From: a phage
Sequence record: PZ386964.1
Length of the DNA: 64,000 nucleotides
Reading direction: 5' to 3' (one strand)
The stretch's first letter is position 1. Each line of letters opens with the position of its first letter. Both the position numbers and the translations under genes were made by a program. Shown here piece by piece: positions 41,838-50,259 of the stretch. The notes below the pieces were generated by a model. It had not been told where the DNA came from. It did no database searches and was given only the letters and a program-made list of their open reading frames with translations.

Positions 41838-43298
41838 ATGAATAAAATATTAACACATAATTGGAAATTCATGTACCAGTTGAATCCTGCTTTAAAAGAA
41901 GTCTGGAAGACAAAAGCGCGATACAAAGTAATATACGGCGGTCGTGCATCTTCCAAATCGCACGATGCCGCTGGTTTTGCTATTTATTTGGCGGCAAACT
42001 TCAAATTAAAATTCCTTTGCGTTCGACAATTCCAGAACAAGATTTCTGAATCTGTATATACTCTATTAAAAGATAAAATAGAGATTTCTGATTTTAAAGA
42101 TGAGTTCAATTTATTAAAGAACTCTATCGAGCATAAAAGAACTAAATCTGAATTTCTATTTTACGGTATCGCACGTAACGTTGATGAAATTAAATCAACG
42201 GAAGGCGTTGATGTTCTTTGGCTGGAAGAAGCGCACGCACTTACTGAAGAACAGTGGGACATTATTGAGCCGACAATCCGTAAAGAAGGGTCAGAAATAT
42301 GGATCATCTTTAACCCTGATGAAGAGGCCGATTTCGTCTACCAAAACTTTGTTATGCGACCGCCGAAGAATGCCATAGTTAAAAAGATAAACTGGCAAGA
42401 CAACCCATTCTTGTCGCAAACAATGCTGGATGTTATCGCAGGCATGTACGAGCGCGACCCGAAAAAGGCAGAGCACGTTTATGGCGGCGTGCCGAAGACT
42501 GGTGGCGATAAATCTGTAATCAACCGTGCATTCGTTAAGGCCGCGCTAAATCTCCACAAACATCCTACGCTGGGGTGGAGTTTGTCAGGGTCCAACCGTA
42601 TAGGCTTTGACGTAGCGGACGATGGCGACGACCTTAACGCCACTGCATTCGTCACAGGAAACGTATTGCGCGGCATCAAGACGTGGGAAGGTCTGGAAGA
42701 TGAATTGTTGAAATCGGCAAGCGGAGTTTGGAAAGATGCGCTTACATTTGGCGCTTCTATAACTTATGACGCCATCGGTGTCGGCGCTTTTGCTGGTTCA
42801 AAATTTGATGAACTGAACGAGTATGCAATACATGAAAATCCATCATTTCCAAGAATCGAATTTAATGCGTTCAATGCGCAAGGGTCTGTTGATGATCCTG
42901 ATGACGTTTTTCTTGAATTACCACACGTTGAAATACTCAATAAAGACCATTTCGCAAACATAAAAGCGCAAAAGTGGACTGAAATTGCAGAGAGATTCAG
43001 AAAGACATACGAATATGCAACTGGGCAAGCCGTATATCCGACTGATGAATTGATTTCAATCGACACCGATGGCATACCGGAACTTGGGATTCCAGCTTGG
43101 ACTACTGAAGAGATTGAGACGTTTCTTTTTGAGATGTCAGCGCCGCGCAAAGACACTTCTGTTCTTGGCAAGTTCAAAGTTGAATCCAAAAAGGATATGG
43201 CAAAGCGTGGAGTCAAATCACCTAACAAAGCGGACGCAGCAATCATGGCATTGATGAAACCAATCGTTGCAGCATCCGGCTTCTTCTCTAACCTTTAA
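41838..43298 (+). CDS. terL: Terminase large subunit
   Basis: Walker A-like GGRASSKS, Walker B VLWLEEA, C-terminal nuclease motif IGFDVADDGDD; 486 aa. Confidence 0.8.
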   Translation: MNKILTHNWKFMYQLNPALKEVWKTKARYKVIYGGRASSKSHDAAGFAIYLAANFKLKFLCVRQFQNKISESVYTLLKDKIEISDFKDEFNLLKNSIEHKRTKSEFLFYGIARNVDEIKSTEGVDVLWLEEAHALTEEQWDIIEPTIRKEGSEIWIIFNPDEEADFVYQNFVMRPPKNAIVKKINWQDNPFLSQTMLDVIAGMYERDPKKAEHVYGGVPKTGGDKSVINRAFVKAALNLHKHPTLGWSLSGSNRIGFDVADDGDDLNATAFVTGNVLRGIKTWEGLEDELLKSASGVWKDALTFGASITYDAIGVGAFAGSKFDELNEYAIHENPSFPRIEFNAFNAQGSVDDPDDVFLELPHVEILNKDHFANIKAQKWTEIAERFRKTYEYATGQAVYPTDELISIDTDGIPELGIPAWTTEEIETFLFEMSAPRKDTSVLGKFKVESKKDMAKRGVKSPNKADAAIMALMKPIVAASGFFSNL

Positions 43299-43301
43299 CA
43301 A

Positions 43302-43541
43302 TCAAAGCATTCCGTGCTGAAGGTCAAGCTTTCTTGCGGCAAACGACCTGGCACGGAATCGCTTACCCGCTCTTACCGCCTGCCGAATCTTCTTTTGCAT
43401 ACACTTACGGTCAAAATCGTTGCGGTCAACGGCTTCGAGTAAATCCCGACGCAAAGCACCTAGTGTCGCCTTTTCGGATAATTCTACGCCCAGCGCGGCT
43501 GCAACGTCTTTCAAAACATCGAGTTCGGTTAACGTTCTCAC
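43302..43541 (-). CDS. Hypothetical small basic protein
   Basis: 79-aa ORF convergent with terL, between terminase and portal genes. Confidence 0.45.
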   Translation of the reverse strand: MRTLTELDVLKDVAAALGVELSEKATLGALRRDLLEAVDRNDFDRKCMQKKIRQAVRAGKRFRARSFAARKLDLQHGML

Positions 43542-44078: not shown

Positions 44079-44116
44079 ATAGATTGATTCCCTTTCACTG
44101 TCAGGTGGCGTTAACA

Positions 44117-46492
44117 ATGAAAATTCTTGGCATAAAACTCTGGGAGAAGACGCAACCAGAAGCCGAACCAGCGGAGATGCCGCCAGGCGACCCATTGGCA
44201 CCGTTTGAACGCCTTGAAAGGCGCGGCAGCGGTCAACGCTGGGAAAAGACTGAAAGCAATCGACCGACCTTTAAAACGGTTGATGACTTCCCTTTATATG
44301 AGCCTGATATTAACGGGGACGGTGTTGCAATCATCAAAGGTCGCTCAGTAGATTCAGCAACCGTATCCAAAAAAGTTATGGATAATGCCTTAAAGAACAT
44401 CAGTTCAGAAGGGCAGGTGAATCCATACACAGTGCCTATTCAGTTGCAAAACTGGTACTTATCGCAATCATTTATCGGATATCAAGCTTGCGCAATTATC
44501 GCGCAGCACTGGCTGGTGAACAAGGCTTGTTCCATGGTAGGCCGCGATGCGGTCCGTAAAGGCTGGGAAGTCAAATCCAGTTCTGAGTCGGAATTGTCAG
44601 TACAGGCCAGCGAACGCCTAAAGCAAATTGATAAAGAATTTAATATCAAAGAGCACTTAGTTGAAGCCGAACGATTCAAGAATATTTTTGGCATTCGCGT
44701 CATCATATTTGACGTGCGCAGCGATGACCCAGAATATTATAGCAAACCTTTTAACATCGATGGTGTGACAAAAGGGTCTTATAAGGGAATTATTCAGGTT
44801 GACCCTTATTGGATGATGCCATTCTTGACGTCTGAAAACACCGCCGACCCTGCATCACAGCACTTCTATGATCCAGAATACTGGGTGATCAGCGGACAAC
44901 GTTATCACCGCAGCCACCTCATCATCTTGCGCAATGATGAGCCAGCTGATATTCTCAAGCCGACTTATATTTACGGCGGCATTCCTCTGACTCAGCAGAT
45001 TTATGAACGCATCTATGCCGCTGAGCGTACCGCCAACGAAGCGCCATTGCTGGCGATGTCCAAGCGTACAACCACGCTGCGGACCGACGTTGACAAGGCG
45101 ATTGCCAATGAGAGGTCTTTTGCTGAACGTCTGATGATGTGGATTAAGTACCGCGACAACTATGCAGTCAAAGTGCTTGGTCAAAAAGAAGAGATGGACC
45201 AGTTCGACATCAACTTGTCAGACTTCGATAGCATCATCATGAACCAGTACCAGCTGGTGGCTGCAATCGCAAAAGTTCCGTCAACCAAACTGCTTGGGAC
45301 TTCGCCAAAAGGCTTTAACGCCACTGGTGAATTTGAGATGGTCAGCTATCACGAAGAGTTGGAAACGTGCCAGCAACATGACCTGACAAAAATTCTCGAC
45401 CGCCATTATAAAATCCTTCTCAAATCAGAAGGGGTGGAAGTCGATGTTAAGGTTGCATGGGAACCAGTTGGCTCACTTACTGCCACTCAACTTGCAGAAA
45501 TCAACGACAAGCGAGCTAACACTGGCAAAACTCTCATTGATGCTGGAGTCATTTCTCCTGATGAAGAGCGCGACCGCATCAAAGACGACAAAAACAGCGG
45601 CTACAACCGTCTGCCGGAAGACGCAGCAGAAGAAACCCCAGGGATGTCTCCAGAGAATATGGCATTGCTTGGCAAGTCTGCTGGTGAAGTCTTGCAAGGT
45701 AAGGCCGATATTGAACAGGCGAAAGCTGATGTCGTTAAGATGGGCGGCCAGTTCTATAGCGAAACAGGTATCATGCCAGAAGGTGCCGCGCGTGGTGAGT
45801 TGGCGGAAAACCCTGACAGAGCGCCTGTCGAAATCAACATGGACGATACCGATGATGAATCAAGCCATCAGGTTGATGTCCTAATGCAGTTGAAAGAAGG
45901 TCTGGAGGGTATTGCTGATTACTACCTAAAAGAAGGTCAGGATGTGGATTTTGACCCTCAAAAAGATTCAAGGTCGGTGCAACCGTCTACCCTTCCAAGC
46001 GTCAAAGGTAATGTCGTTAACTTACGACACAACGTTGGAAAGATGGACGCAGCATCATTACCTAAGATGAAGTTGCACGGGCTGATTCTTGGCATTGAGA
46101 ATCCTCGCAACAGCATTCGTAGAGGTAACAGTCTTGACGGTGAATGGGCCGTGAAGATGCCGCACCATTACGGATTCATCAAGGGCACCAAGGGCGCGGA
46201 CGGCGATGAAGTAGACTGCTTTGTGGGTCCAAATATGAAGTCGCCGAAAGTCTTTATCGTTAACCAGAACGATAACTACTCTGGCGAGTTTGATGAACAC
46301 AAGTGCATGCTTGGATTCGATTCAGCAGAAGAAGCGAAAGAAGCTTATCAAGCATCATTTGGTAACGGTTGGAACGGATTCGACTCAATCCACGAATTGG
46401 ATGTTAACTCATTCAAAGAGTGGTTGAAGGGTGATTGCTCTCAAGCATACGGAGCACTCAATAATCCTACTAATTCACCGAAGCAAGGTTGA
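44117..46492 (+). CDS. Portal protein with a C-terminal inorganic-pyrophosphatase-like domain
   Basis: ATG preceded by AGGTGG. N-terminal ~480 aa portal-like, between terL and a MuF-like gene. C-terminal ~130 aa contains DGDEVDC (family I pyrophosphatase signature pattern) and segments alignable to E. coli Ppa. Confidence 0.6.
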   Translation: MKILGIKLWEKTQPEAEPAEMPPGDPLAPFERLERRGSGQRWEKTESNRPTFKTVDDFPLYEPDINGDGVAIIKGRSVDSATVSKKVMDNALKNISSEGQVNPYTVPIQLQNWYLSQSFIGYQACAIIAQHWLVNKACSMVGRDAVRKGWEVKSSSESELSVQASERLKQIDKEFNIKEHLVEAERFKNIFGIRVIIFDVRSDDPEYYSKPFNIDGVTKGSYKGIIQVDPYWMMPFLTSENTADPASQHFYDPEYWVISGQRYHRSHLIILRNDEPADILKPTYIYGGIPLTQQIYERIYAAERTANEAPLLAMSKRTTTLRTDVDKAIANERSFAERLMMWIKYRDNYAVKVLGQKEEMDQFDINLSDFDSIIMNQYQLVAAIAKVPSTKLLGTSPKGFNATGEFEMVSYHEELETCQQHDLTKILDRHYKILLKSEGVEVDVKVAWEPVGSLTATQLAEINDKRANTGKTLIDAGVISPDEERDRIKDDKNSGYNRLPEDAAEETPGMSPENMALLGKSAGEVLQGKADIEQAKADVVKMGGQFYSETGIMPEGAARGELAENPDRAPVEINMDDTDDESSHQVDVLMQLKEGLEGIADYYLKEGQDVDFDPQKDSRSVQPSTLPSVKGNVVNLRHNVGKMDAASLPKMKLHGLILGIENPRNSIRRGNSLDGEWAVKMPHHYGFIKGTKGADGDEVDCFVGPNMKSPKVFIVNQNDNYSGEFDEHKCMLGFDSAEEAKEAYQASFGNGWNGFDSIHELDVNSFKEWLKGDCSQAYGALNNPTNSPKQG

Positions 46493-46493
46493 T

Positions 46494-47345
46494 ATGGCTT
46501 TTAAAGCTTCGAGAAAACGTGAACGCCGCTCACCCGATAGAATCGGGCGCGGCAGTCCGATAGTACCATCAAATGCTATTGCGATGGCCTACCGTCGTGA
46601 GATGAAAGGTCTTTGCTATGCGATGATTGATGACTATCAGGAAGGCATTTCAGAATGGCTTGACAAGAAGCAGGTGCAAAAGTTTTTTGCGCAAGACTCT
46701 GCTGATTCGACATTCCAGACCCTTATGAAAAGGCTGCAGCTGAAATGGGCAAAGGCTTTTGCACGTGTTGGGTCAAAGATTGCCGCCGATTTTATCAAAT
46801 CGGTCGAAAAGGGCGCTACTTCTGCTACATTCGCCAGCCTTAAGTCAGCAGGCATAGAAGCGCCAAAGGCCACATATAACAAATTCGTTGAGAACACTCT
46901 TAGAACAAGCGAGACGTTCAACACGACTCTAGTGACTAAGGTCGGCGAGGACATTCACAACAGAGTGTACGAAGCAGTCATGCTTTCGTTGACTTCGCCC
47001 GACCCAGCCCAGCAAGGAACGTCAGGCATTCAGGCGGCGTTGCGAAACGTAAAACACTTCTCTGCAAAGAGAGTCGACTTAATCGCTAAAGACCAAACGA
47101 GCAAATTGTATTGCGTTCTAAGCGATGAAAGGATGCGCCAGAATGGAGTCGAAGAATTTGAGTGGGCGCACTCAGGAGCAGGAAAGGAGCCGCGAATCTC
47201 TCATGAGCACGTCGACGGAATGAGATTCAAACTTGATGACAAGCGCCTATGGGAAGTTGGCGGCGAATTGAAGTTCAAAAAGGGTGACATCGGTCCTCCT
47301 GGATGGGCAATACACTGCAAGTGCAGAAAAATACCAATCATTTGA
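46494..47345 (+). CDS. Head morphogenesis protein, MuF / SPP1 gp7-like
   Basis: Position right after the portal; C-terminal PGWAIHCKCR motif. Confidence 0.6.
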   Translation: MAFKASRKRERRSPDRIGRGSPIVPSNAIAMAYRREMKGLCYAMIDDYQEGISEWLDKKQVQKFFAQDSADSTFQTLMKRLQLKWAKAFARVGSKIAADFIKSVEKGATSATFASLKSAGIEAPKATYNKFVENTLRTSETFNTTLVTKVGEDIHNRVYEAVMLSLTSPDPAQQGTSGIQAALRNVKHFSAKRVDLIAKDQTSKLYCVLSDERMRQNGVEEFEWAHSGAGKEPRISHEHVDGMRFKLDDKRLWEVGGELKFKKGDIGPPGWAIHCKCRKIPII

Positions 47346-47352
47346 GGTCATT

Positions 47353-48273
47353 ATGACGATACCAATCAGCACGTTTCCTCTATCTGGACAAACGCCAGTA
47401 TTGCCTGCTGTATATGCTAACGGTTTGGCGATTGTTTCAGATTTTACATCCGACAAAAACTTGATTGTTCCATTGAGTCCGCCATTGGCGTCTGGATACA
47501 ATTCAGTTGGTCAATTCTTTATGATCGGTAATGACGGCGATTCTACCAGCAAGCCGAATCTGACACTTTCAGTTCCCAAAATGAACATAACAGACGTGCA
47601 GAGTGGTTTAACTGCATCTACAATCACCATCGCTTTTGGCGAAGCAGTGATTATAGGCATGGAGTCTGGAGGGTCCAAGAATGCTGTCGCCGTTAAGGTA
47701 GTCAAATCCAGTGGAAACCAATACACGCTACCAGCGGCAACGGCTTCTGTTCTTGGAGGCGTCAAAATAGGAAGTGGCATAAGCGTTGCAGGTGACGGCA
47801 CAATTAGCGTGACTCAATACTCGTTACCGATTGCATCAGCGTCAACCTTGGGCGGCGTAAAGGTAGGTACGACACTATCAATTGATGGTTCTGGTGTTCT
47901 TAATGCAGCAGCAAGCAACGTCCAGAATGCCACTAATGGTGTCAGCAATCCTCCAACAACTTTGGTAAATCTGGCAACCTTAAACCTTCCTGCAGGAAAG
48001 TGGCTGGTCACGGCAAGTCAGTTGACTGTCGCGACAGCAGGAATTCAAGCGAATACCGGAATTACAGTCAAATTGTCAACAAGTAATTCAGATATTACGG
48101 ATGATGCATTTACGATGTCGGCTGGCATTCGGGCTGCAGGTCGTTTCGGCGGCAATATTCCAACAAAGATAATTACTCTTGCCGCGCCTGGCAACGTGTA
48201 TCTAAACTATCAATGCACAGACGCATTGACATCTACCGTTTACGGACAGATCACTGCAATTAAGTTGAACTAA
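47353..48273 (+). CDS. Fiber-like structural protein with tandem ~30-aa repeats
   Basis: ATG with GAGGT site; repeats YTLPAATASVLGGVKIGSGISVAGDGTISVTQ / YSLPIASASTLGGVKVGTTLSIDGSGVLNAAAS resemble phage fiber repeats. Confidence 0.5.
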   Translation: MTIPISTFPLSGQTPVLPAVYANGLAIVSDFTSDKNLIVPLSPPLASGYNSVGQFFMIGNDGDSTSKPNLTLSVPKMNITDVQSGLTASTITIAFGEAVIIGMESGGSKNAVAVKVVKSSGNQYTLPAATASVLGGVKIGSGISVAGDGTISVTQYSLPIASASTLGGVKVGTTLSIDGSGVLNAAASNVQNATNGVSNPPTTLVNLATLNLPAGKWLVTASQLTVATAGIQANTGITVKLSTSNSDITDDAFTMSAGIRAAGRFGGNIPTKIITLAAPGNVYLNYQCTDALTSTVYGQITAIKLN

Positions 48274-48837: not shown

Positions 48838-50259
48838 ATGCGAATGCAAACGGCACGCGAAATTGACAAAAATGGATTCTTGACGATTGTGGGTTGTCCC
48901 ATTTCGTCATTTGGCATTTTTGATTATTCTGCAGGTCAGGTTGGACTTGATGGTGATCCGAATCGCATCGTAAAAGTTTATCGCCCAGAGTCAGCGGTGA
49001 AAGACCCCGAAGCGATAGATTCATTCAAAAATATCCCTTTCATCGACAATCACGAAATGCTTTCTGGATTCGAAGGTGATGAGGATAACACAGCACCCGA
49101 AGAGTATGGCGTTGATGGCGTTCTAACTGGCAATGTTTATTATGACAAGCCATGGATGCGCGGCGACCTTAAAGTGTTTAGCCGTCGTCTTAAGAAGGCC
49201 ATTGATTCTGGAAAGGCTGATTTGTCTTTGGGCTATGACTGTGAATTCATCATACAGTCTGGAGAGTTTGACGGGCAGCCGTATGAAGTGGTACAAACAA
49301 CTCTTCGCGGCAACCATATTGCTCTCGTGGACGTTGGTCGAGTACCAGGTGCACGGGTGCTGGATGGTCGTTGCTTTGACCATCTTTGTTTGACGACTGT
49401 AACACCATCCAACGAGGATTTAGACATGCCAAAACCGTTAAAAGGTAAAGCGCGTGATAATGCTGTTGAACAGCTGAAATCACTGATCCCTGCGCTCGAA
49501 CAATTTCTGAATGAAGAGAGCACCGAAGCTGCTCATCAGGACGAAGTTGAAGTGAAAGCAGAAGAGAAGGATTCAACCGAAGAACGTGAAGAAGTGATGG
49601 TTGATCCAGAAGTTAAAGCAGAAGCTGAAGAGACTCCAGAAGGTGAAGAGAAGTTTGAAGTTGAAACTGAATCTCACGCTGGCGGCGAACTTCCGCAACT
49701 GATCAGCCAAATCGAAGCACTTATTGCAAAACTGAAAGGTGGCGCGGTAGGTGATGAAGAAGAAGTTGAAGCCGAAGTCAAAGACGAAGAAGAAATTGAA
49801 GTCAAGGCTGAAGATGTATCACCTTGCGACAAAGCTGAAGATGTGGTTAGCGGCCTGCAAAACAGCAACGTAAAGGGGGCTTCGGTCGAAAAAGATGACA
49901 AACCGACAAAAGCGGCGAAAGCGTCGCCAGGTCCAGCAAAAGGGGAACACTCAATGGCATCTGATTCAGCAGTTGCTGCTTTCTACGCTGATTCTGCTCG
50001 TAAGAATAGCCTCTACCAGCGCCTGTCTAAAGTTGTTGGTGCCTTTGATCATGCAACTATGGACTCCAAGTCCGTAGCGAAATATGGCGCTAAAAAGTTA
50101 GGCTTGAAGTGCGTTGATGGTGCTGAGTTTGACGTTGTGGATAATTATCTGCGCGGCGTTGAACACGGTCAAAAACAGCGTGTAGTCGCAAAACAAAAGG
50201 CCGCTGCGGATTCTGCAGCAACTGACGAAGCATTTGAAGCTTGGTTGAAAGGGGAATAA
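48838..50259 (+). CDS. Head scaffolding / prohead-protease-like protein (putative)
   Basis: N-terminal domain with LRGNHIALVDVGR motif, long Glu/Lys-rich acidic linker, C-terminal domain; promoter TTGCCT, 17 bp, TATAAT upstream. Start may be the ATG at 48844. Confidence 0.45.
   Translation: MRMQTAREIDKNGFLTIVGCPISSFGIFDYSAGQVGLDGDPNRIVKVYRPESAVKDPEAIDSFKNIPFIDNHEMLSGFEGDEDNTAPEEYGVDGVLTGNVYYDKPWMRGDLKVFSRRLKKAIDSGKADLSLGYDCEFIIQSGEFDGQPYEVVQTTLRGNHIALVDVGRVPGARVLDGRCFDHLCLTTVTPSNEDLDMPKPLKGKARDNAVEQLKSLIPALEQFLNEESTEAAHQDEVEVKAEEKDSTEEREEVMVDPEVKAEAEETPEGEEKFEVETESHAGGELPQLISQIEALIAKLKGGAVGDEEEVEAEVKDEEEIEVKAEDVSPCDKAEDVVSGLQNSNVKGASVEKDDKPTKAAKASPGPAKGEHSMASDSAVAAFYADSARKNSLYQRLSKVVGAFDHATMDSKSVAKYGAKKLGLKCVDGAEFDVVDNYLRGVEHGQKQRVVAKQKAAADSAATDEAFEAWLKGE

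Follow-up and report, generated by a model that had tools for sequence, protein, structure and literature searches.

A portal protein with a C-terminal inorganic-pyrophosphatase-like domain carried in the virions of Wifcevirus phages

Introduction

The joining of a phage portal protein to a domain related to inorganic pyrophosphatases was reported by Iyer, Burroughs, Anand, de Souza and Aravind in 2017 (J Bacteriol 199:e00245-17; PMC5512222), who defined a divergent clade of pyrophosphatase (PPase) domains, InPase, in the 'polyvalent proteins' of phages. They noted that the clade is without a beta-hairpin that is found in solved PPases (their section 'The InPase domain'), and that some of its versions are joined to a portal domain, with BcepF1.124 (YP_001039808.1) cited as the example. 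The same authors predicted that InPase domains would be packaged in the virion and possibly injected, acting on a nucleotide-like substrate or clearing inorganic pyrophosphate (PPi). Here we analyze a gene of this architecture, located at positions 44117 to 46492 of a 64,000-nucleotide (nt) stretch of phage DNA from sequence record PZ386964.1, referred to below as the window.

An initial annotation of the window, made from the sequence alone, described this gene as encoding a portal protein with a C-terminal pyrophosphatase-like domain lying within the particle, and took such a fusion to be undescribed. The domain identity and the particle location are both borne out by the results presented here; the supposed novelty is not, as the portal-InPase fusion is already known and common, and the BcepF1 protein itself is among the homologues that we recovered (P0068 in our numbering; E 6e-254, 53% identity). 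A literature search on inorganic pyrophosphatase together with phage portal protein returned nothing relevant, and a paper found by a search on Acb1 together with portal protein contained nothing on portal fusions.

The closest solved portals are the gp19 proteins of Pseudomonas phages E217 (PDB 8fvh) and Pa193 (PDB 9b41), in which residues 94/97-528 of 765 are modelled and residues 529-765 are without density. The C-terminal barrel of the E217 portal interacts with DNA and unfolds after ejection (PMC10329688). A term search of the electron cryomicroscopy (cryo-EM) papers on E217 and Pa193 found no mention of pyrophosphatase.

Results

A portal protein extended by a linker and an InPase domain

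On the plus strand the open reading frame (ORF) begins at 44084 (TTG) or 44117 (ATG) and ends at 46492. The ATG at 44117 is the start chosen in annotated relatives, and a start there gives a protein of 791 amino acids (aa). The anatomy of the whole chain was read from a full-length AlphaFold2 (AF2) model, using its secondary structure and the predicted local distance difference test (pLDDT), and is as follows.

44101-44106, plus strand: ribosome-binding site AGGTGG, about 10 nt 5' of the ATG at 44117
44117-46492, plus strand: portal-InPase gene, a single intact ORF of 791 codons plus TGA
44117-44437, plus strand: N-terminal segment of about 107 aa, predicted to be disordered (pLDDT below 50 for most of aa 1-107)
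44438-45616, plus strand: portal core (wing, stem and clip), aa ~108-500, Phage_portal_3, confidently modelled
45650-45742, plus strand: long helix, aa 512-542, from the AF2 secondary structure and the alignment to 9b41
45743-46060, plus strand: acidic linker, aa ~543-648 (about 110 aa), predicted from pLDDT to be mostly disordered
45860-45922, plus strand: isolated helix within the linker, aa 582-602 (HQVDVLMQLKEGLEGIADYYLK), pLDDT about 83-89
46061-46429, plus strand: InPase domain (PF18823), aa 649-771, modelled as a beta-barrel with pLDDT of about 90
46199-46219, plus strand: DGDEVDC signature, aa 695-701, equivalent of D65-G-D67-P-V-D70-V in E. coli Ppa
46430-46489, plus strand: disordered C-terminal tail, aa 772-791 (pLDDT below 50 at aa 782-791)

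By profile match and by homology to a solved dodecameric portal, the protein is a portal of the PB1-like gp19 type. Phage_portal_3 (PF06381) matches aa 122-468 (E 4.3e-88), and the solved portals are found as homologues with E values of 3.5e-189 (8fvh, E217 gp19) and 1.8e-250 (9b41, Pa193 gp19), the latter with 52% identity over the full length; NCBIfam yielded nothing beyond a sub-threshold match to the HI1409 portal family. The counterpart of the disordered N-terminus, 93-96 residues long, is invisible in the E217 and Pa193 maps, and the helix at aa 512-542 is the counterpart of the C-terminal barrel helix, the last part of gp19 that was modelled in either phage (to residue 528). The chain extends roughly 250-300 residues beyond the part of these portals that is visible by cryo-EM, in agreement with the initial annotation, which had noted an excess of about 300 residues. 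The motifs to which it had pointed also lie where it put them, HHYGFIKGT at aa 683, DGDEVDC at aa 695-701 and GFDSAEEAKEAYQASF at aa 733.

Within the linker, the whole of which can be put at roughly 110-150 aa, pLDDT is below 50 at aa 526-582 and low at aa 603-645, and in an alignment of 56 homologues none of the columns from aa 513 to 660 is invariant. The isolated helix at aa 582-602 is partly conserved among homologues (L..L...L....D...PEG.D) and, as modelled, may serve as a docking element.

Several ways in which the fusion could be spurious were considered and rejected. A frameshift separating two genes, which the initial annotation had raised against itself, is excluded by an uninterrupted 2376-nt gene in all 29 matching phage records; in two of these the label 'hypothetical protein (x2)' reflects merely an overlapping annotation of the next gene. 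An artificial fusion of two genes is excluded by peptides detected by mass spectrometry (MS) that flank every junction and by the presence of both domains in the best 120 homologue clusters. Internal initiation yielding a free InPase found no support, the ATG codons at 46043 and 46067 being without a convincing Shine-Dalgarno sequence.

The C-terminal domain has a predicted pyrophosphatase fold

The Pfam model PF18823 (InPase) matches aa 649-771 (E 2.7e-46) over profile positions 12-135 of 135, and its score of 157.2 bits is far above the cutoff of 26.8. Membership of the classical PPases by profile was rejected: the gathering score of PF00719 (Pyrophosphatase), 23.5, was missed both with the whole protein (18.3 bits) and with the domain alone (20.8 bits), the sub-threshold match spans only profile positions 32-57 (the YGF...DGDxVD stretch), and phmmer comparisons with PPases in the PDB gave E values of 0.18-0.9 over 27-36 residues. 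DGDEVDC fits the PPase signature D-[SGDN]-D-[PE]-[LIVMF]-D-[LIVMGAC], a PROSITE pattern, and it is the one match to that signature in all six frames of the window. With 0.0011 chance matches expected from the composition of the protein, and with the PF18823 match beside it, this signature, from which the initial annotation had argued, stands far above chance.

An AF2 model of aa 640-791, built with 26 homologues, has a pLDDT of 89.3 and a predicted template modelling score of 0.84. Its top 50 Foldseek matches in the PDB are all family I pyrophosphatases (E 1.5e-4 to 9e-3, TM-scores 0.4-0.5, identity 12-21%), and as modelled the domain has the PPase fold, an OB-like (oligonucleotide/oligosaccharide-binding-like) beta-barrel with flanking helices. 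Profile searches, fold searches and the profile-profile alignment of motifs described below all point to a portal carrying a C-terminal family-I-pyrophosphatase-like domain. In the stretch that leads from the first strand to the YGF strand, the equivalents of E20 and Y55 lie 24 residues apart, compared with 35 in E. coli Ppa, which fits a deletion; the secondary structure of the AF2 model still has one hairpin there (strands 667-672 and 675-680).

A conserved core of active-site residues

Family I PPases have 13 conserved active-site residues, in E. coli numbering E20, K29, E31, R43, Y55, D65, D67, D70, D97, D102, K104, Y141 and K142; of these, R43, Y141 and K142 hold the leaving-group phosphate in the E. 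coli enzyme. We used hhalign to compare a profile of 121 portal-fused domains with an E. coli-type Ppa profile, the E. coli Ppa sequence having been verified against PDB 4um4. The PPase profile is shallow (Neff 1.7), all of the homologues recovered for it being at least 82% identical.

The alignment pairs E661 with E20, R668 with K29, Y685 with Y55, and D695, D697 and D700 with D65, D67 and D70; by strand register, E727 and K729 would correspond to D102 and K104. The candidate active-site residues are thus E661, R668, Y685, D695, D697, D700, D726, E727 and K729. Fourteen positions are invariant in the 121 domains (E661, N662, R668, Y685, G686, D695, D700, Q717, F725, D726, E727, K729, A740 and Y744), and the D697 column holds D in 112 sequences, E in seven, and N and H in one each (93% D, 98% acidic). 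Most of the candidate residues show no variation in a further set of 26 homologues, the majority of which are stand-alone proteins. Eight of the 13 Ppa residues accordingly have conserved counterparts (E661, R668, Y685, D695, D697, D700, E727 or D726, and K729), and the full set of 13 was not found in the 121 domains. The position aligned with D97 is D719, where 78 of the 121 sequences have D, and the D97 counterpart is uncertain.

Toward the C-terminus, MLGFDSAEEAK... is matched to VEGWENAEAAK..., at low confidence (hhalign local probability 65%, E 5.9e-5). This reproduces the pairing with Ppa that the initial annotation had proposed; the order of secondary structure equally allows the helix at 737-746 to be the counterpart of helix A, in which case the invariant Y744 might be the Y141 equivalent.

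On these alignments, the metal-binding, water-activating core and the contacts to the electrophilic phosphate are retained, and retention of the part of the site that holds the leaving-group phosphate cannot be demonstrated. Because the PF00719 gathering score is missed and two active-site residues are without conserved counterparts, the sequence justifies the description 'pyrophosphatase-like phosphoanhydride hydrolase' and not 'pyrophosphatase'.

The domain is present in virions

Necel et al. (2020; PMC7048862) analyzed CsCl-purified virions of vB_Eco4M-7 and ECML-117 by in-solution tryptic digestion and liquid chromatography-tandem mass spectrometry, and detected 20-22 peptides of a protein of 88.6-88.7 kDa in the two phages. 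The peptides in their published tables represent the N-terminus and the linker as well as the InPase domain and the very end of the chain. Those from the InPase domain are LHGMILGIENPR, MPHHYGFIK (172-174 peptide-spectrum matches), GADGDEVDCFVGPNxK, VFIVNQNDNYSGEFDEHK and CMLGFDSAEEAK; together with the C-terminal peptide GDCSQAYGALNNPTNSPK (aa 772-789), which is found in both virion proteomes, they map onto aa 653-789 of the window protein. Peptides from the N-terminus (aa 12-32 and 45-53) were recovered from ECML-117 virions, and coverage in that phage, projected on the window protein, reaches 79% in aa 531-648 and 59% in aa 649-791, compared with 32% in aa 1-95 and 19% in aa 96-530. The InPase domain is therefore present in the virion, as the initial annotation had supposed.

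Conservation of the whole architecture

The gene is matched over its full length by megablast, with 93-96.5% nucleotide identity, in 29 phage records (27 Escherichia phages, one Shigella phage and Wifcevirus WFH), among them TH32, Mansfield, FEC19, ECML-117, WFH/WFC, vB_Eco4M-7 and Bas99; those matching records for which the taxonomy was checked belong to the genus Wifcevirus. The window as a whole is about 96% identical to already sequenced phages. A single PHROG, 4660, spans nearly the entire protein (aa 16-777, profile positions 23-760 of 765). PF06381 and PF18823 occur together in all of the best 120 homologue clusters, which extend to Pbunavirus, Serratia phage Hera, Burkholderia phages Maja and WTB, Xanthomonas phage Carpasina and Luteibacter phage Pluto, the Pluto homologue being annotated as 'inorganic pyrophosphatase'. 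Ratios of nonsynonymous to synonymous substitution (dN/dS) among four Wifcevirus sequences are 0.010 for the portal core, 0.019 for the InPase domain and 0.052 for aa 501-648, indicating that the InPase domain is under purifying selection.

InPase domains in other settings

A library-wide profile search recovered 12,222 clusters (50% identity) with an InPase domain, many of them in proteins of 2000-6000 aa, and structure matches in BFVD include a Serratia MTx portal, a 'Mega protein' and a 'Large polyvalent protein associated domain'. PF18823 thus occurs in virion-associated and polyvalent phage proteins, and is fused to the portal here, within the head module.

Five sister portals of 1190-1320 aa (P0056, P0061, P0116, P0125 and P0143) have an ADP-ribosyltransferase (ART) domain, PF03496, at the extreme C-terminus. 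Their domain order is portal, InPase, about 250 aa and ART, with the ART of P0056 at aa 1151-1318; judged from these domain matches, such portals would carry two putative effectors on one chain.

A stand-alone InPase (P0037, at 7001-7669 of L004, a 70-kb metagenomic contig) has as neighbours genes for a radical SAM protein, a methyltransferase, an epimerase/dehydratase, QueC, an Asn-synthase-like amidotransferase and a glycosyltransferase. This neighbourhood looks like a PPi-releasing pathway of nucleotide or DNA modification, and the setting keeps a plain PPi role plausible for at least some members of the family. A second stand-alone InPase (L005, 7001-7531) adjoins gp25-like baseplate genes.

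Genomic setting

The head module is arranged in the order terminase large subunit, two small minus-strand ORFs, portal-InPase, MuF-like protein, a 30-kDa virion protein, DUF2213 protease/scaffold and major head protein. Its members other than the portal gene include the following.

41838-43298: terminase large subunit, 5' of the portal gene
43302-43541, minus strand: ORF of 79 aa
43538-43954, minus strand: ORF of 138 aa, overlapping the preceding one
46494-47345, plus strand: MuF-like head morphogenesis gene (PF04233, E 4.4e-7; PHROG 324, E 1.3e-66; Bas99 annotation)
47284-48273, plus strand: ORF between the MuF-like and protease genes
48838-50259, plus strand: DUF2213 head maturation protease/scaffold (PF09979, E 4e-35; PHROG 3778, E 1.8e-171)

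The MuF-like gene starts 1 nt past the portal stop and belongs to the head module, outside the fusion. The DUF2213 protease is the sole candidate in the module for freeing the C-terminal domain, and that it cleaves the portal is something that we can only infer. In the DUF2213 protein (473 aa) the long C-terminal half is acidic, and the protein gives the top MS signal in CsCl-purified virions of both ECML-117 and vB_Eco4M-7, with peptides throughout the acidic half, which is consistent with the report that in Pa193 the scaffold-like gp24 remains beneath the capsid vertices.

The two minus-strand ORFs between the terminase and portal genes sit in an otherwise plus-strand module; both are conserved, and they are hypothetical in Bas99 (Bas99_0002 and Bas99_0003). 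The product of ORF 47284-48273 is annotated as a 'tail fiber protein' in Bas99; its orthologue in vB_Eco4M-7 (gp38, 30.9 kDa) is abundant in virions, with 73% coverage, and the place of the gene among head genes points to a protein associated with the head, not to a fibre. Across the window (1-64000), GC skew and AT skew reverse in sign at about 20 kb and once more at about 34 kb, matching blocks of opposite-strand genes and thus the organization of transcription units.

Discussion

Possible functions of the portal-borne domain

We favour, with moderate confidence, the view that the domain is an encapsidated phosphoanhydride hydrolase, carried in the virion as an effector that would act early in infection. 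The portal of this Wifcevirus-type (PB1-like) myophage is a dodecamer whose chain runs past the barrel helix into a flexible linker and then into InPase, flexibility being suggested by the missing density in E217 and Pa193 gp19 and by the predicted disorder. Its C-terminus faces the interior of the head, so that each capsid receives twelve copies of the putative enzyme, and the domain is still present in purified virions. The DGDxVD aspartates, the upstream Glu, the D-E pair, and the Arg, Tyr and Lys would make up a two-metal, water-activating core and an electrophilic-phosphate site, and since both of these seem to be retained, Mg2+-dependent hydrolysis of a phosphoanhydride bond is to be expected. 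A cut in the linker, probably made by the head maturation protease, would release the domain, which would then be carried out of the head with the DNA and act within the first few minutes after infection. It would hydrolyse either PPi that is generated close to the incoming genome or a nucleotide-like molecule that bears a pyrophosphate. This effector model is preferred because InPase occurs outside portals and because the sister portals carry an ART. ART enzymes need NAD+ and target proteins and can act only in a cell.

A number of observations weigh against this view. In-solution digests cannot tell a tethered domain from a released one. Cleavage would be a necessary step of the model, since a linker of about 110 residues, if left uncut, is too short to reach through a tail that measures 1300-1500 Å. 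In Pbunavirus SCUT-S1, 'ghost' particles left after release of the DNA by LiCl gave 59% coverage of the 84.5-kDa homologue (a figure for the protein as a whole), which would fit a domain retained in the head. The E31 position is occupied by G670 and the R43 position by K680, which is K in 83 of 121 sequences, so that neither has a conserved counterpart, and the Y141/K142 segment was skipped by the profile alignment and is not placed. Our literature search found no enzyme assay for any PF18823 member, and a sequence search of the PDB found no solved structure of a PF18823 domain, the InPase region of its only match, 9b41 (E 5e-50), being unmodelled. Twelve molecules, moreover, could hardly alter bulk PPi beside the abundant host Ppa.

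The small number of copies relative to host Ppa and the changed leaving-group site together tilt the choice of substrate slightly toward a specific molecule of low abundance. A more pointed proposal, which we regard as improbable, is that the portal is a cargo carrier from which the protease, by cutting the linker, would release twelve InPase domains (and, in the sister phages, the ART as well) for ejection, InPase then serving as an early anti-defence or takeover enzyme directed at a scarce nucleotide that carries a pyrophosphate, for example an alarmone or an immune signalling or precursor molecule. The enzyme would then not be a PPase of the housekeeping type, and the absence of conserved counterparts for R43, and possibly for Y141 and K142, fits this.

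The best-surviving alternative to an ejected effector, possible though on balance unlikely, is that the domain is a resident of the capsid, staying attached to the portal and either acting in assembly or packaging or filling the space above the portal, for example by organizing or retaining the last-packaged end of the DNA. The recovery of peptides along the whole chain, including the linker, from mature virions speaks for it, with no shorter species reported, as do the coverage kept by the Pbunavirus ghosts, the DNA binding and post-ejection unfolding of the E217 barrel, and the conserved, confidently predicted linker helix that could dock. However, there is no known phosphoanhydride substrate in the capsid, and the domain is found both stand-alone and in polyvalent proteins that have no portal, which argues for a function independent of the portal. 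A purely structural role is at odds with the strict conservation of the metal-binding residues, and the ART of the sister portals would be pointless if confined to the head.

It is also conceivable, but improbable, that InPase is a genuine PPi-specific pyrophosphatase of use in the producing cell, where late portal subunits would hydrolyse PPi and so pull DNA replication, transcription and other nucleotide-consuming reactions, their packaging being incidental. Such an enzyme would keep the signature and the metal and electrophilic-phosphate residues, as is seen here; the stand-alone InPase on the metagenomic contig lies amid PPi-releasing enzymes (QueC, the Asn-synthase-like amidotransferase and nucleotide-sugar enzymes), and PPi clearance is among the options given in the 2017 study. 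Yet this account leaves unexplained why the fusion to the portal is obligate and has been conserved in Wifcevirus, Pbunavirus, BcepF1-like, Serratia, Xanthomonas and Luteibacter phages. Portal subunits are made late and in few copies, in a host whose own Ppa is very active, and both the R43 and E31 positions and the score below the PF00719 gathering threshold fit poorly with a PPi-specific enzyme.

A relic devoid of catalytic activity, or two genes joined through an error of annotation or sequencing, can be dismissed as very improbable, for although the domain scores a mere 18 bits against the classical Pyrophosphatase model and its Foldseek TM-scores are 0.4-0.5, 29 genomes and the best 120 homologue clusters have an intact ORF, peptides flank the junctions, the internal ATGs are poor starts, the candidate catalytic residues are invariant and dN/dS is 0.019.

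Significance

As a discovery the fusion carries little weight, since the domain family, a Pfam model, a PHROG covering the full architecture and, since 2017, an explicit statement of the portal fusion all exist already. To the 2017 description we add peptide-level evidence that virions contain the domain, a mapping of its residues onto those of E. coli Ppa, and the portals in which an ART follows InPase. The remaining interest lies in an experimental question, namely what this very widespread enzyme domain of virions does; in E217 and Pa193, both of them therapeutic Pseudomonas phages, it occupies the unmodelled third of the portal (the C-terminal 230-260 residues). Wifcevirus and the BASEL isolates (Bas98-101) offer a system based on E. 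coli K-12, and vB_Eco4M-7 has been assembled synthetically in vitro, making direct tests of cleavage, ejection and substrate feasible.

Comparison with known systems

The portal-InPase proteins of Iyer et al. have the same architecture as the window protein (Phage_portal_3 followed by InPase), belong to the same divergent PPase clade and are the subject of the same prediction; there is no architectural difference between them, and the window protein is the Wifcevirus orthologue. Pbunavirus gp19 is a full-length homologue, with 9b41 aligning over aa 14-779 of the window protein, and shares the portal fold and the C-terminal barrel helix. The two differ in what has been detected at the N-terminus, the first 93 residues of Pa193 gp19 not having been seen by liquid chromatography-mass spectrometry, whereas N-terminal peptides were seen in Wifcevirus virions.

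E. coli Ppa is about 175 residues long and the InPase domain about 123 (roughly 50 shorter), with about 30 fewer residues after the equivalent of K104. Family I PPase is a free hexamer, in contrast to a domain tethered to a dodecamer.

Among packaged enzymes, T4 Alt, the MuF-fused effectors and the portal- or MuF-fused PBECR and 2H domains likewise place an enzyme on a component of the head interior, in a fixed number of few copies per virion. For the T4 Alt ADP-ribosyltransferase both packaging and injection are documented (summarised in PMC5512222), whereas release and ejection of a portal-fused InPase are predicted only. The sister portals even bear an Alt-like ART domain after their InPase.

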